64,000 bases of DNA from Marine Group II euryarchaeote MED-G37 (GTDB lineage Archaea > Thermoplasmatota > Poseidoniia > Poseidoniales > Thalassarchaeaceae), in contig NTJQ01000004.1 in the NCBI GenBank assembly GCA_002457555.1, positions 24,860 to 88,859 on the forward strand. Direction: 5' to 3'. Made by a program: the position numbers and the translations under genes. Of the stretch, positions 1-55,662 are shown piece by piece. Position 1 is the first letter of the stretch; each line of letters begins with the position of its first letter. The notes under the pieces were generated by a model. It did not search any database and was not told the origin of the DNA. It saw only the letters and a program-made list of their open reading frames with translations.

Positions 1-576
1 AATGGGCACTCCTGCCCTTTCAATGCCTTCTCGGATTTGTTCTAGAGTGACAGAATCTAGCGCTCCTTCTGAAGGCTTTGGATAGTACGCAATACCGTCG
101 TTATCCAACAACACTGGCATACACCTGTCACCATCAACTAGACTTTCTTCATCGAATAGAAGAGATATATCCGCCCCGTGTTCTTTTGCAACCTCTCGAG
201 CATCGAAATATGGTGTCCAATCACCGTGTTTTGTACCTCTTACTGCACCTTCCCATCGGGGTGCTGAAAGACTGATTGCAGTCATTTGATTGGGCCATTT
301 TCCATTTACTCGAGGTACTAATTCAATTTTCCCATTAGGATTGATTCCAATCTTTACCAAAAATGGCGCTTGATTTTCTTCTACTACTGATTCGCCCGGA
401 ATCTCACATTTGCTGAGTGCTTCAAAGATAAGTTCTGGTAGGTTATCTGGCAGATTGAATCCCAATCTTTCCGCGTGTCGGAAAAGGCGAGAAATATGCA
501 AATCGGGTGCTAATAGCCGTGTTCCGCCATCCCAAGCTATGGTGGTGAATACCTCGGAGCGCGGATCACCACCCAT
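1..576 (-). CDS. Fold-type IV aminotransferase / aminodeoxychorismate-lyase-like protein, N-terminal part (gene runs off the left edge)
   Basis: Hand translation of the minus strand from ATG 576..574 stays open to nt 1: MGGDPRSEVFTTIAWDGGTRLLAPDLHISRLFRHAERLGF...RGTKHGDWTPYFDAREVAKEHGADISLLFDEESLVDGDRCMPVLLDNDG. The pattern (FTT..G, H..RL, Lys-containing TKH motif, GAD..LL.D...V.DG) fits the BCAT/PabC family. It is absent from the ORF track because no stop lies in the window. Confidence 0.55.
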   Translation of the reverse strand, partial: MGGDPRSEVFTTIAWDGGTRLLAPDLHISRLFRHAERLGFNLPDNLPELIFEALSKCEIPGESVVEENQAPFLVKIGINPNGKIELVPRVNGKWPNQMTAISLSAPRWEGAVRGTKHGDWTPYFDAREVAKEHGADISLLFDEESLVDGDRCMPVLLDNDGIAYYPKPSEGALDSVTLEQIREGIERAGVPI

Positions 577-43915: not shown

Positions 43916-44156
43916 TATTGTTAATTCTTGACGACCATGCAAACAAATCTAATATATTGATGAAATCAATAAACTGCACCTCAGTGTGGCGTTATTGGGG
44001 CATAGAGGTTCATTTCACACAACGATTAATTATCGTCTGCTGCAAAGTTATACCGTACGGGGCCGTTGAGGTTCTCGCTGAGTGCATCCCATCCCCTCGC
44101 TTTTGTCTCTCGCCCTGTACACCTATTCGGGGTACGCGAAGGCTTTCTCCAATGGT

Positions 44157-51972: not shown

Positions 51973-53199
51973 GTGACCGGACTTTCCATTGAGTCTATCT
52001 CCTCCTATGTGCGAGACCTTTCTAGCTCCTGTTCCGCATTACTTCTAGTCGAGGATTTACTATTCGCTGGCTCGCACGATGGCTTACTTGTTTCCTGGGA
52101 TGCTTCCAGCGGAGTTGAACGCTGGAGAGTTTCGATTGATGGCCCAATATCAGATTTTTCTCTTGATTTAGATACTCTTTTTGTTACATCATCAGATTCG
52201 CTGTATTCAATTGATGTGAGTGATGGCTCCATCCTTTGGAATAGAGAGTTAGAAGGCGCTAGTGACTATGTCGTTGCTTTGGATGGGATTGTTTGGGCAA
52301 CTTCTTCTGTATACGAATTAGAGGTTGCGGACTTTATTGAGAATACAGTATGGCGATTCGATGCGGATGGTAAAGAACTCGAGCGCTGGGATATCTCAGA
52401 GAAGCCATGGCACATAGGCTTGGACAAAGAAGGGAGCCTTCTACTCGGAATTGGCTTACCTCGTTGTGGTGTGGCCAAGATATCTTCTGGAGAAAAGCGA
52501 TTGCAATTCATTTTGAAACCACTTTCTACTTATGAAAACGGATATGATATACGAAGATCCCCGGTTACTTGTGGAGATTGTAGTGCCGATTTTTTCTACG
52601 CACCTGGTCCTTATTCCAAATCTCCTGAGGAAGAAAACTGGGTATGGGAAAATGATCCACAGCTAACAAAGAGATTGTCTTTTGGAGTAACTGGAAGTGA
52701 TGTGACGGCAGTGAAATCTACTGGTTTTGGATTTGTATATGGGACTTCAACTGGCTTTTATTATTATTCTGGATGTGAAGGAACTGGAGCGATTACAAAA
52801 GACGGATTAGTCATTCAAGGTAATCGCACTGATCTTGTAAAAATCAATGGTTCCATTGATGCCGTCGCAGGTCTTGGAACCAGTATCTGGCTATCGTATT
52901 ATGACTCAAGAGATTCCAGACCTTCACATCAACATAAGATAGGTTTGTTTCGGGAAATTACACAGGATGACACTTACCGTGAAAATGGAAAGCATCATTT
53001 TATTCCCCATGATTCTCGTATACGTCTGATGGATTCCTCTGATGATATTCTAGTGATGGGTGATGAGCAAGGGAGAGTTTTCGTGATTGAATCCGAAGTA
53101 GCACAAAGAAGGATTGATTTCCCTAGTTTCTCCGAACCAAGAAATGACCCGAAAGAATCCGAGCTTAGAGCTCGTCTAAGGATGTTAAGAAATCGATAA
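51973..53199 (+). CDS. PQQ-like/WD40-like beta-propeller repeat protein
   Basis: 408 aa from a GTG start. Repeats of the type LFAGSHDGLLVSWDASSGVERWRV and LFVTSSDSLYSIDVSDGSILWNR (BamB/PQQ-repeat pattern). Confidence 0.65.
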   Translation: MTGLSIESISSYVRDLSSSCSALLLVEDLLFAGSHDGLLVSWDASSGVERWRVSIDGPISDFSLDLDTLFVTSSDSLYSIDVSDGSILWNRELEGASDYVVALDGIVWATSSVYELEVADFIENTVWRFDADGKELERWDISEKPWHIGLDKEGSLLLGIGLPRCGVAKISSGEKRLQFILKPLSTYENGYDIRRSPVTCGDCSADFFYAPGPYSKSPEEENWVWENDPQLTKRLSFGVTGSDVTAVKSTGFGFVYGTSTGFYYYSGCEGTGAITKDGLVIQGNRTDLVKINGSIDAVAGLGTSIWLSYYDSRDSRPSHQHKIGLFREITQDDTYRENGKHHFIPHDSRIRLMDSSDDILVMGDEQGRVFVIESEVAQRRIDFPSFSEPRNDPKESELRARLRMLRNR

Positions 53200-53269
53200 T
53201 TCCCGGCCTGAAGTGCAGTGGAAATTAACACCCTATGACCCCTATTTCCGGTCCACAGTACCTCATTTA

Positions 53270-53284
53270 GCGAAATGTTTATTA
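53270..53284 (+). promoter_or_regulatory. BRE/TATA-like element (GCGAAATG-TTTATTA) that could drive + strand transcription of the ORF-free island
   Basis: TTTATTA at 53278..53284 is preceded by purine-rich CGAAA. The predicted TSS near 53310 lies just upstream of the cUUCGg hairpin. No flanking gene needs a promoter here, because both neighbours end at this gap. Confidence 0.3.
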
Positions 53285-53309
53285 GCCTCTGTCTTTCAGA
53301 CCAAACTTG

Positions 53310-54010
53310 CCGCTCAGGGAGAGTGGTGTGGTGCTTGCTTCGGCAAACACCGCGGGCCACAGAACCGAACCCCGAACTCGGGGTGGTAGAACCGGAAACC
53401 GCAAGGAGACCGGGGATAATCAAACCTGGCACTTGGGTCAGGGGAGATACGGTCGAACTGAGGTGGATAAAACCGGACGAAAGAAAGGGGAAAGAAGCCA
53501 CAGGGAAAGTTGGGGAAAACACAACCGCACTGCTTAGGCAGGGAAAACGCATACCGTGCCAACTAACTAGACCGTGAGTGCATAAGCAAAGAGCGAGAGA
53601 ACCAGAGATGGGAAAAGCTTGAGGCGGATTTGTGGGGAACAAAGGAAGACGAAAACCGGACGTAAGGAAGGGGAAAAGAAACCAGAGGGAAACACAGCGG
53701 GAACAAGAGCGCGGAGACGCGTGGAGGACCGGCACTCATTCCAAAAAACAAACCGGTGAGAGCCGGAGAGGGAAATGGAAACGCAGAAACGGGGAGCGAT
53801 CCTCGAAAAAGCGGGAAACGACGAAACAGCTCCTCGGAGCAATGTAGTCATCTACCCGGGAAAAAAAGGGCGCAAGCCCGGATGGAACCGGACCCTGCGG
53901 AGATAGTAGGGGGGGATGCTCCCCCATGTGCAGAACCCCCTGCTACTCCCACCTTGTACCAAAGTACGGCTGAGCCCCATTCCATCTAACTATCAATCAT
54001 TGCGGAGTAT
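53310..54010 (+). ncRNA. Candidate large (about 0.7 kb) structured non-coding RNA, unclassified
   Basis: The 861-nt gap lies between convergent gene ends. Strong purine bias on the + strand (50 of 60 nt in 53641..53700). Hairpins: cUUCGg-capped stem of about 11 bp (53328..53353), CCCCG-AACT-CGGGG (53370..53383), CCGG-AAA-CC-GCAA-GG-AGA-CCGG (53392..53413), CGCG-GAGA-CGCG (53710..53721), GGGC-GCAA-GCCC (53868..53879) and GGGGG-ATGCT-CCCCC (53911..53925). T-rich stretch after 54005. The boundaries are estimates. Confidence 0.4.
53383..53892 (+). repeat. Five dispersed copies of a GGWGG(N2-4)AACCGG(A/T) module, including one clear 50-75-nt duplication
   Basis: AACCGGA at 53390, 53471, 53654 and 53886, and AACCGGT at 53751. 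TGAGGTGGAT-AAAACCGGACGAAAGAAAGGGGAAAGAAGCCACAGGGAAA (53459..) is matched by TGAGGCGGAT-[22-nt insert]-AAAACCGGACGTAAGGAAGGGGAAAAGAAACCAGAGGGAAA (53620..). Confidence 0.6.
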
Positions 54011-54060
54011 TTCTCCCCTCAAAGTTAGATTTCACTTGTTACGAACAACATCCAGTCGGA

Positions 54061-55662
54061 CTAATCTTTAGGCCCAATCATTTCTCTAGGTTTCACCCAT
54101 TGGTCGAATTGATCGTTTGTAACCAGGCCCAGTTCAAGCGCAGACTCTCTAAGTGTAGAACCGCTTGAATGTGCATGTTTAGCAATCTTTGCTGCACCAT
54201 CGTACCCTATGTGGTTGTTGAGAGCTGTGACCAGCATCAAACTATTTTCTAGATGGGATGCAATCACTCCTTCATTGGCCTCAAGTCCATCAACACATTT
54301 CTCGGTAAAGGCCCTACAAGTGTCTGCAAGTAATCTGGTGCTGTGTAGCAAATTGTAGATCATCAAGGGCTTGTACACATTGAGTTCGAAATTTCCTTGA
54401 CTACCTCCGACGCTAATTGCTGTGTGATTACCCATTACTTGGCAACATACCATAGTCATCGCTTCGGCTTGAGTTGGATTGACTTTTCCTGGCATTATGC
54501 TAGAACCTGGTTCGTTGGCTGGTAGAGATAATTCACCAAAGCCACAGCGGGGGCCCGAGCCCATCCAACGAATATCGTTTGCAATCTTCATTAGGCTTGC
54601 AGCTAGAGTGTTTAGTGCCCCTGATGCAGCAACAATTGCATCATGAGCCGCTAGTTGCGCAAATTTGTTTTCTGCCGAGACGAATGGTAATTGGGTCTTC
54701 TCGGCGATTCTATCAGCGACTTTGTCCGCGAATTCGTAATGGGTGTTTAGCCCCGTTCCAACTGCTGTTCCGCCTAATGCTAACTCCAGTAAATCGTCCC
54801 ATGCTGCTTCAATTCGGCGGATATCGGATGAAAGCATTGAAGCATAGCCTCCAAACTCTTGGCCTAGAGTTAGTGGTACTGCATCCATTAGGTGAGTTCG
54901 GCCAATCTTCACTATATTCTCGAACTCATCGGCCTTTACTGCGAGAGCGTTGTGCAGTAATCGAACTGCAGGTAATAATCGATGGTGAATTTCCTCGGCG
55001 GCTGCTATATGCATCGCTGTGGGAAAAGTATCGTTACTGGATTGACCACGATTTACGTGATCATTAGGGTGCACAGGCGATTTGCTACCCAATTCACCTC
55101 CTGCCATCTCTATTGCTCGATTAGCAATGACTTCGTTGCTATTCATGTTAGTCTGTGTTCCAGACCCCGTTTGCCAAACTCGGAGTGGGAAATGTTCGTC
55201 CAATGAACCAGATATCACCTCGTCACAGGCTGAAGAGATTAGAGCACCAATCTGAGGGTCGAGTTGGCCGAGTTCGACATTAGTTTCTGCTGCTGCTTGT
55301 TTTAGTATTCCAAAGGCTCTGATTAATGATGGAGCCATCTTATCTGTACCTATATCGAAGTTGATTAATGAACGGGCGGTTTGTGCCCCAAAGTATCGGT
55401 CCGCCGGAACTTCTAACTCACCCATGGTGTCTCTTTCGATTCTAATTTCACCTGTTACACCGGATGCGCTTCTTTGCTGGATAGAGGAGTTTTGCGATGG
55501 TGCAATTTGCTCGGTTTCCAAACCGCTTTGAATCATTTTTGTTATTGTAGCGGATCTGCCATCATTTCGGCCCTTTCCGACCCTTCTATCTAACTTCCTT
55601 GCAAGCTCTTCGGGTATGCTGATACTGATTATCCGGCGGTCGCCCGCTCTGTGTTTGGCCAT
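54061..55662 (-). CDS. fumC: Class II fumarate hydratase with an N-terminal ribbon-helix-helix (CopG/NikR-like) extension
   Basis: 533 aa. The core begins [30 protein letters not shown] and carries the signature [13 protein letters not shown]. The preceding ~70 aa ([41 protein letters not shown]) have the RHH strand-helix-helix pattern. Confidence 0.88.

Follow-up and report, generated by a model that had tools for sequence, protein, structure and literature searches.

A candidate large structured RNA gene between two convergent genes of Thalassarchaeaceae (Marine Group II)

The gap and its conservation

The stretch of DNA considered here, called the window below, comprises 64,000 nucleotides (nt) of contig NTJQ01000004.1 of the Marine Group II (MG-II) euryarchaeote MED-G37, a member of the family Thalassarchaeaceae of the order Poseidoniales. 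Two convergent genes of this window are separated by a gap of 861 nt (53200-54060): a gene for a PQQ-type beta-propeller protein (51973-53199, + strand) and fumC (54061-55662, - strand), the product of which has Lyase_1 and FumaraseC_C domains. An earlier reading of the letters alone (the first-pass annotation) had stated that both neighbours end at the gap, as they do, and had taken the gap for a structured non-coding RNA (ncRNA). Our analysis favours, with a probability of roughly 0.6, a stand-alone gene for a large structured ncRNA specific to Poseidoniales, about 670 nt long here and from about 590 to more than 1000 nt in its relatives.

The gap had been described as free of genuine open reading frames (ORFs), and this description stands: the only ORFs present are of low complexity and overlap each other on both strands, and none of them has a Pfam match. 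The purine richness noted earlier was also reproduced, with 50 purines among the 60 nt of 53641-53700. Over the entire 64-kb window, purine content measured in 600-nt stretches peaks in the one that begins at 53316 (purine fraction 0.69, against a mean of 0.496 with a standard deviation of 0.042). The predicted RNA as a whole is 66% purine and contains long A/G-only tracts within and after each of its repeated hairpin modules, while G+C content climbs across the gap from about 0.42 to 0.55.

Many contigs encode the exact PQQ protein and have identical or nearly identical gap DNA, and relatives of this protein (30-93% identity) lead to contigs with the same gene order. In all relatives fetched, this order is M32 carboxypeptidase, PQQ protein, a gap of about 0.8-1.2 kb, fumC and cyclophilin. 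Alignments of the gap DNA contain long invariant runs, while the flanking PQQ protein is only 30-48% identical. Nothing was found with the PQQ protein as query against genome contigs; DNA motifs derived from the RNA succeeded, and homologues were gathered with such motifs. A 3' gap motif searched against the GTDB species representatives gave 52 loci in 51 assemblies of Poseidoniales, together with four chance matches in bacteria. All matches named to family belong to Thalassarchaeaceae (MGIIb) and none among these species representatives is named Poseidoniaceae. A second gap motif matches at least 120 marine metagenome stretches, and at least 142 distinct full-length sequences were collected, forming 22 clusters at 90% identity. 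Wherever the flanking genes were inspected, the RNA sits between the PQQ gene and fumC, and the 3' motif occurs once per assembly with a single exception. Among IMG/VR viral contigs the 3' motif had no match and the 5' motif had 17, every one due to chance. An RNA of a mobile or viral element was considered and rejected on these grounds, namely a nearly constant single locus per assembly, a constant position and the lack of any true viral match in that collection.

Might the gap conceal a protein gene, or be nothing but the 3' untranslated region (UTR) or terminator region of the two convergent genes? Public annotations do call ORFs here. Public metagenome-assembled genomes (MAGs) list an ORF at 53632-53847 (+) as a 'hypothetical protein', which forms a 71-amino acid (aa) cluster of 43 members (e.g. 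MAQ04369.1), and ORFs of 141-289 aa are annotated in homologous loci. However, the called ORFs switch strand and frame among homologues, gene callers having assigned ORFs of 64-289 aa now to the - strand and now to the + strand (L007-L021), and they have no Pfam matches. Long ORFs on the - strand are to be expected, since this strand is pyrimidine-rich and poor in stop codons. The first-pass annotation had named 3-nt periodicity or a conserved frame as the signs of a hidden protein gene, and neither is seen: the variable columns of the alignment show no preference for any codon position (138/131/145, p = 0.70), and indels relative to the window break the frame, 318 being non-multiples of three as against 32 multiples. 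A UTR, for its part, is expected neither to exceed coding regions in conservation nor to possess a promoter of its own at fixed spacing. We consider both versions of this explanation very improbable. The protein cluster was also tried as a route to evidence of expression and set aside, because an ORF merely annotated as hypothetical in MAGs says nothing on transcripts.

Fold, strand and ends of the putative RNA

Two alignments were used, A3 with 27 sequences of standard length and A4 with 47 more diverse sequences, the latter taking in the AT-rich L080-type lineage and the L084-type sequences, a 'short' class of about 590 nt. For A3, 118 pairs were predicted, 39 of them with compensatory changes; 98.3% of cells can pair, compared with 35-46% when the partners are slid by 1-3 columns, and the covariation score is 0.243 compared with 0.03-0.08 after sliding. 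For A4, the 87 predicted pairs include 46 compensatory ones, 96.7% of cells pair (31-45% when slid), and the score rises to 0.350 (0.05-0.08 when slid). Well-supported helices are distributed over the whole element: 53309-27, 53328-53, 53392-413, 53420-47, 53449-54:53570-75, 53630-34:53693-97, 53698-731, 53753-66, 53790-805, 53856-59:53888-91 and 53905-12:53937-44. Four invariant blocks lie outside the covarying helices, namely GCGGGCCACA (53352-61), UCUACCC, GGACCCUGCGGAG and CUCCCAC.

Three long-range helices appeared in the first RNAalifold prediction (53328-33:53948-52, 53350-56:53894-900 and 53386-90:53851-55) and were afterwards rejected or downgraded. In the wider sequence set a competing local hairpin (53328-31:53350-53) covaries from G-C to A-U, and changes in GGUAGA are uncompensated in several lineages. 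The wider alignment contains no long-range helix or pseudoknot with covariation support. Our modelling predicts an RNA of more than 20 mostly local helices, many of them capped by UUCG or GNRA tetraloops, with invariant purine-rich internal loops and linkers between them.

Several observations assign this fold to the + strand. The consensus fold energy is -126.9 kcal/mol on the + strand and -88.2 kcal/mol on the reverse complement, and the minimum free energy z-score of the single sequence is -3.3 on + and -1.95 on -. Several G-U pairs are invariant in A4, which argues for the + strand since the opposite strand would have A-C mismatches, and the UUCG and GNRA tetraloops are readable on the + strand alone. 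The tetraloops pointed out in the first-pass annotation (CTTCGG at 53338-43, GCAA at 53401-04 and 53872-75, GAGA at 53714-17) were all located, each capping a helix of the consensus fold. Likewise, the nested AGUUG/CAACU pairing it had drawn around CUGC-UUAG-GCAG matches the predicted helices 53510-13:53559-62 and 53530-31:53537-38. Its central proposal of a structured + strand RNA of about 0.7 kb, presumably transcribed on its own, is supported: many helices covary and the + strand folds better.

A putative B recognition element (BRE)/TATA-type promoter, GCGAAATG TTTATTAG, lies at 53270-53285 on the + strand and is recognised by its fixed spacing in distinct flanks and in the alignments. The BRE/TATA-like string reported earlier, GCGAAATGTTTATTA, is indeed at 53270-53284, its TTTAT beginning 31 nt ahead of the first helix. 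Of 101 distinct upstream flanks, 100 carry such a box, TTTA(T/A) with (C/G)GAAA in front of it, and in each of these the distance from the start of the box to the G of GCCGC, which opens that helix, is exactly 31 nt. This constancy points to a start at about 53307-53309, and the + strand would be transcribed from there under the control of its own promoter. At the other end, a run of five or more T follows the conserved CUCCCACC (CUCCCAC) in 44 of 130 distinct flanks, at a median distance of 20 nt, and 34 more have a T4. The RNA probably ends soon after the conserved CUCCCACC...GCCC(A/U)UU, where many relatives carry oligo-T. The window itself has no clear T-run at the 3' end of the RNA, and here we infer an approximate end near 53981, after the conserved GCCCC-AUU. 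The locus is presumably transcribed, the exact ends are estimates, and the RNA would be abundant and stand alone. A scan for sigma-70 promoters and intrinsic terminators was discarded as uninformative since the host is archaeal.

Architecture and the repeated purine module

The putative ncRNA gene is drawn from 53309 to 53981 on the + strand, on the basis of conservation, covariation, strand tests and the T-runs of relatives; all elements described here from 5' to 3' are on this strand, with loops in square brackets where they are set off. Hairpin 1 (GCCGCUC/GAGUGGU, 53309-53327) contains two conserved G-U pairs and has compensatory changes in three of its seven pairs in A4, with a C-G to U-A change in the L080-type lineage. 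Hairpin 2 (53328-53353) is capped by C(UUCG)G, and its local helix 53328-31:53350-53 alternates between G-C (32 sequences) and A-U (15), a covariation that supports local pairing against the long-range alternatives. It is followed by GCGGGCCACAG-AACCG (53352-53368), invariant in the 47 sequences and mostly unpaired; for a proposed GGG:CCC pairing of this block with 53893-95 there is no variation in A4. The hairpin CCCC-GAAC-UCGGGG with its flanking stem (53364-53387) exists in lineage variants CCCC/GGGG, UCCG/CGGA, CUCC/GGAG and CCUC/GAGG, the counted pairs having changed on one side only. In the next hairpin, CCGG-AAA-CC[GCAA]GG-AGA-CCGG (53392-53413), two of four outer and both inner pairs are compensatory, and in the L042-type lineage every position of the helix pairs. 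The helix at 53420-53447, made up of hairpin 53426-30:53437-41 and outer stem 53420-22:53445-47, ranks first in de novo covariation scans, all seven counted pairs being compensatory.

A domain spanning 53449-53575 is closed by ACGGUC (53449-54) and GACCGU (53570-75), four of six pairs showing compensation. It contains purine module 1 (53458-53503), with the stem 53458-64:53497-503 (three compensatory pairs) below the hairpin CCGGA-C[GAAA]G-AAAGG (53473-53489), and a sub-domain of the consensus fold at 53504-53568, with helices 53510-15:53554-62 and the hairpin CUGC[UUAG]GCAG (53525-53542). This sub-domain is absent from the 'short' class. Downstream, the hairpin CCA[GAGA]UGG (53602-53611) has one compensatory pair, the others being invariant, and purine module 2 (53630-53697) consists of the stem UUGUG (53630-34):CACAG (53693-97), compensatory in four of five pairs, and the hairpin CCGGA-C[GUAA]G-GAAGG (53656-53671). 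The irregular hairpin CGG-GAACAAGA-GCGCG[GAGA]CGCGU-GGAGGA-CCG (53698-53731) has a covarying apical stem (compensatory pairs 3/5 in A3 and 3/4 in A4), the purine internal loops vary little or not at all, and GUGGAGGA and GGGAACAAGAGC are largely invariant.

The 3' half continues with the hairpin CCGGU[GAGA]GCCGG (53753-66) and its outer stem (together 53742-53777), compensatory in 3/5 pairs in A3 and 3/3 in A4, and with CGGGGA[GCGA]UCCUCG (53790-53805), where five of six pairs are compensatory. A GAC:GUC stem (53820-53849) surrounds an inner hairpin around GCUCC-UCG-GAGC, the inner stem of which is compensatory throughout (3/3). UCUACCC (53851-53857) is invariant in the 47 sequences, an observation that is partly circular because the block overlaps or served as a search motif; in several lineages, changes without compensation disrupt the pairing predicted between it and GGUAGA (53385-90). 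The stem CCGG:CCGG (53856-59:53888-91) encloses the hairpin GGGC[GCAA]GCCC (53868-79), the whole occupying 53856-53891; two of four pairs are compensatory, and L080 and L027 covary. GGACCCUGCGGAG (53890-53902) is invariant in all aligned sequences, which is again partly circular given its use as a search motif. In the 3' domain (53896-53951), UG(C)GGAG:CUCCCA closes the stem 53905-12:53937-44 around a G-run/C-run hairpin; the outer helix is invariant, and the inner stem covaries from G-C to A-U (GC 32, AU 15), also in L107. CUCCCAC (53946-53952) is invariant as well, with the same circularity from search-motif overlap. Finally, the lineage-specific hairpin UUGUAC[CAAA]GUACGG (53954-53969) is present in the window-, L009- and L014-type sequences, and the L011-type has T-runs in its place.

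The purine hairpin module, CYGGA-S[tetraloop]S'-GAAGG with a purine tail, is present in two copies in the window and in one to six or more in relatives. Expressed as the unit GUGGAGAGAAC-YGGAC[GMAA]GGAAGG-GGAAGGAAGC, with GGACG at 53475 and 53658, it has two exact matches in the 64 kb and three when up to two mismatches are allowed, whereas 0.23 would be expected by chance. In each copy the pair that closes the loop is C-G in most sequences and G-C in the others (CG 38/GC 9 in module 1, CG 39/GC 8 in module 2). The loop itself may be GAAA, GCAA, GUAA or CUUG, whereas the flanking GGA and GAA are fixed, which suggests that the functional element is the 3x3 purine internal loop and not the tetraloop. 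As judged from its bases, this internal loop would be compatible with tandem sheared G-A pairs. Copy number accounts for the length classes of the RNA (about 590, 665-684, 711-720, 767-786 and 855-876 nt, and more than 1 kb), each of which recurs in independent assemblies. Many contigs end or carry N-runs inside the locus (L004-L007, L013, L046, L062, L064, L078 and L079), where the repeated purine modules appear to break short-read assembly; a good number of MAGs probably lack the RNA or have it in truncated form.

Two known motifs invite comparison with the module. As in kink-turns (K-turns) and K-loops, the sites of L7Ae, it can be drawn as C-G, Y-G, G.A, G.A, A.G, closing pair and tetraloop, and GGA/GAA fits the tandem G.A pairs, yet the module is without the 3-nt bulge and the C-stem and has a covarying closing pair and a tetraloop in the loop position. 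The G-G-A-A strand after the loop presumably matches the 3' strand of the archaeal sarcin-ricin loop, a resemblance that we take as a lead only. The module differs from the sarcin-ricin/loop E motif in that its first strand is YGGA, not AGUA (G for U), and its tetraloop is not GAGA. Mimicry of the sarcin-ricin loop was rejected on account of this strand and of the unconserved tetraloop (GAAA, GCAA, GUAA, CUUG).

How might such an RNA work? As a best guess, held tentatively, we propose that it may be a multivalent ribonucleoprotein (RNP) scaffold or sponge, in which the invariant GGA/GAA purine loop of each module would bind one copy of the same protein and the invariant 5' and 3' blocks would form a separate functional core. 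An RNA acting without a dedicated protein partner, self-folding or self-assembling like the homo-oligomeric ROOL, GOLLD and OLE, or a ribozyme, seems unlikely to us. In that case an active site or tertiary core would be made up of the invariant unpaired blocks, with the purine modules serving as structural struts. The invariance of GCGGGCCACA, UCUACCC, GGACCCUGCGGAG and CUCCCAC outside covarying helices speaks for it, as does the abundance of stable tetraloops and of internal loops rich in purines, both of which are typical of large RNAs that fold on their own, and there is a precedent, since large ornate RNAs are reported to form RNA-only assemblies (PMC12286853). Conversely, such an RNA finds no long-range helix or pseudoknot with covariation support here and no similarity to a ribozyme family in Rfam, and the module tetraloops are GNRA or CUUG, which makes specific tetraloop-receptor docking unlikely.

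The purines themselves might alternatively be the point, the RNA serving as a sponge that titrates pyrimidine-rich RNAs, such as 16S rRNA through its CCUCC end or mRNAs through their pyrimidine tracts. Its purine content, the long A/G-only tracts that the modules contain and are followed by, and an invariant GGAGGA at 53723-28 would suit this role. The tracts, however, flank covarying stems and resemble irregular helices rather than free strands, the target RNA is hypothetical, and the invariant positions include a single GGAGG, so that this role appears distinctly improbable.

Further conserved elements flank the candidate gene. An inverted repeat, GGAAAT (53220-25) and ATTTCC (53244-49), with a nearly invariant core GGAAATTAACA, occupies 53216-53259 without strand assignment, 30-60 nt upstream of the TATA box of the RNA; in the alignments it is kept by sequence, not by covariation. 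L011-type lineages have a perfect 10-nt palindrome, CAGTGGAAAT/ATTTCCACTG, as this repeat. The repeat may bind a regulator or form part of the 3' UTR of the PQQ gene. In the interval that separates the RNA from the fumC stop codon, the alignments reveal TATCAATCATTGCGGAG with a small hairpin (53991-54016, no strand assigned), kept in several deep lineages and absent from others; it may belong to the RNA or to the fumC 3' UTR, or be a protein-binding site. In the metagenome contig L113 the TATA box is fused directly to GGGTGTGAGG and hairpin 1 is gone, reflecting either a natural deletion or an assembly chimera, and L113 was left out of the alignments.

As regards the neighbouring fumC, the N-terminal ~75 aa of its product (about 55438-55662) weakly match a ribbon-helix-helix domain (CopG, RHH_1; E 1e-3), with 19.4 bits, below the cutoff of 20.5. 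The syntenic homologues are all 532-533 aa long, and from these lengths the N-terminal extension appears conserved. A DNA-binding domain fused to fumarase beside an RNA gene could have a regulatory role. Elsewhere in the window, a second gap between convergent genes (43916-44156, 241 nt) has no ORF of 100 aa or more.

Relation to known RNAs and significance

The first-pass annotation had proposed a covariance-model search against Rfam, and this search assigns the RNA to no Rfam family. At gathering thresholds, Rfam 15 has no match anywhere in the window. Permissive searches returned only noise, both for 53000-54300 with E up to 10 (Atu_C4, E 2.8) and for six homologous loci with E up to 5 (sR12 and MEG8_3, outside the RNA).

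A housekeeping RNA that has diverged strongly, be it that of RNase P or that of the signal recognition particle (SRP), might be suspected from the large size, single copy per assembly, high conservation and invariant blocks, and there are superficial likenesses of ACAGAAC to part of conserved region V (CR-V) of RNase P RNA and of CCGGA..GGAAGG to part of SRP helix 8. The archaeal RNAs of families RF00373 and RF01857 resemble the present one in being conserved, single-copy and structured, with promoters of their own, but differ in size and architecture. Metatranscriptomic mapping of transcription start sites has identified in MG-II canonical RNase P RNAs of 292-306 nt matching RF00373 and canonical SRP RNAs of 305-315 nt matching RF01857 (PMC5069720). 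Since MG-II thus carries canonical versions of both, and no RF00373 or RF01857 match exists at the locus even permissively, the RNA is neither of the two, as the first-pass annotation had also supposed. The RF00373 model covers the CR-I/CR-V P4 core, and that of RF01857 the helix 8 motif together with the Alu domain. Candidate strings picked by eye (CR-I/CR-V-like and helix-8-like) were dismissed on the same evidence, and the probability left to a housekeeping identity is negligible.

A closer candidate is Tan1. Hou et al. (2016, PMC5069720) describe it as a 229-nt ncRNA of great abundance in situ, with complex structure and homologues only in Ca. Thalassoarchaea (MGIIb), which ranked fifth in RNA-Seq of euryarchaeal contigs from Red Sea metatranscriptomes. 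Tan1 might be the best-conserved or a processed part of the longer RNA proposed here. Lineage, complex structure and uncharacterised status are shared and, in that study, reads were mapped to non-identical reference contigs, so that conserved segments alone might have recruited them. However, the study gives 229 nt and five BLASTN homologues, six sequences in all, as against about 590 to more than 1000 nt and more than 140 distinct sequences for the present RNA (PMC5069720). The two have been compared by description only, and we judge their identity possible but doubtful; if Tan1 does correspond to this locus, the RNA is partly known, though uncharacterised. No published description of another large MG-II ncRNA was found in the literature. 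From its sequence the RNA is rated as a presumably new class outside the catalogued families, with the stated reservation on Tan1. As a separate observation, highly expressed 'intrinsically disordered protein' genes mentioned by Hou et al. could include misannotated structured-RNA loci (PMC5069720), since ORFs of low complexity such as those of the present gap, lying over an abundant structured RNA, might be read in this way.

In general appearance the RNA resembles the large bacterial RNAs OLE, GOLLD, ROOL, HEARO and raiA, which likewise measure several hundred nt, have many covarying helices and invariant loops, are lineage-restricted stand-alone genes and were found by sequence analysis, with function unknown. 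No covariance-model match was obtained with these families, with IMES-1..4 or with any other family of Rfam 15. Unlike them, the present RNA has an archaeal host, is strongly purine-rich and varies in module copy number by lineage, and, unlike large bacterial ornate RNAs, it shows no association with phages or mobile elements. The proposed likeness of working is rather to CsrB/RsmZ, stand-alone ncRNAs that also carry variable copies of one short structured motif. CsrA is a bacterial protein. CsrB/RsmZ are non-homologous, present GGA in a hairpin loop and not in an internal GGA/GAA purine loop below a tetraloop, and sponges of this type are without the large invariant 5' and 3' domains seen here.

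Several points weigh against reading the gap as a stand-alone structured RNA with such a role. None of 500 shuffles reached the covariation score of A3, nor any of 500 that of A4, but these shuffle statistics overstate significance, related sequences being non-independent. Several conserved helices never vary and hence give no covariation signal, and, with none of the three long-range helices initially predicted upheld in the wider set, the overall architecture drawn here is provisional. Because the sequences were gathered with motifs derived from the RNA, the invariance of the search motifs and the taxonomic range are both biased. Expression, abundance and ends of the RNA are all deduced. Lastly, the scaffold model has its sole basis in a repeated motif with an invariant non-Watson-Crick loop, and its partner protein is hypothetical.

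Should the stand-alone RNA gene be real, its consequences may reach beyond the locus. To our knowledge, no large archaeal ncRNAs other than rRNA, RNase P RNA and SRP RNA have been described. It is conceivable, though we think it improbable, that the RNA is a machine with an activity of its own, either catalytic or as an RNA-only or RNP super-assembly, and it would then be the first large, ornate, lineage-wide archaeal ncRNA class beyond those three. Equally speculative is the idea that, in such a machine, the invariant unpaired blocks would be the core and the expandable array of purine hairpins would tune valency in each MG-II lineage.

As a practical resource, the analysis supplies over 140 sequences along with a defined candidate gene, its promoter and a model of the fold. 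Public MAG annotations misplace 'hypothetical proteins' on the RNA, and its repeated modules often break short-read assemblies, which is relevant when MG-II genomes are assembled. MG-II are among the most abundant planktonic archaea of the surface ocean, and none has been cultivated. For these organisms, an RNA of 0.6-1 kb that is more conserved across a family than the proteins encoded beside it would represent an unrecognised and probably important component of the cell.

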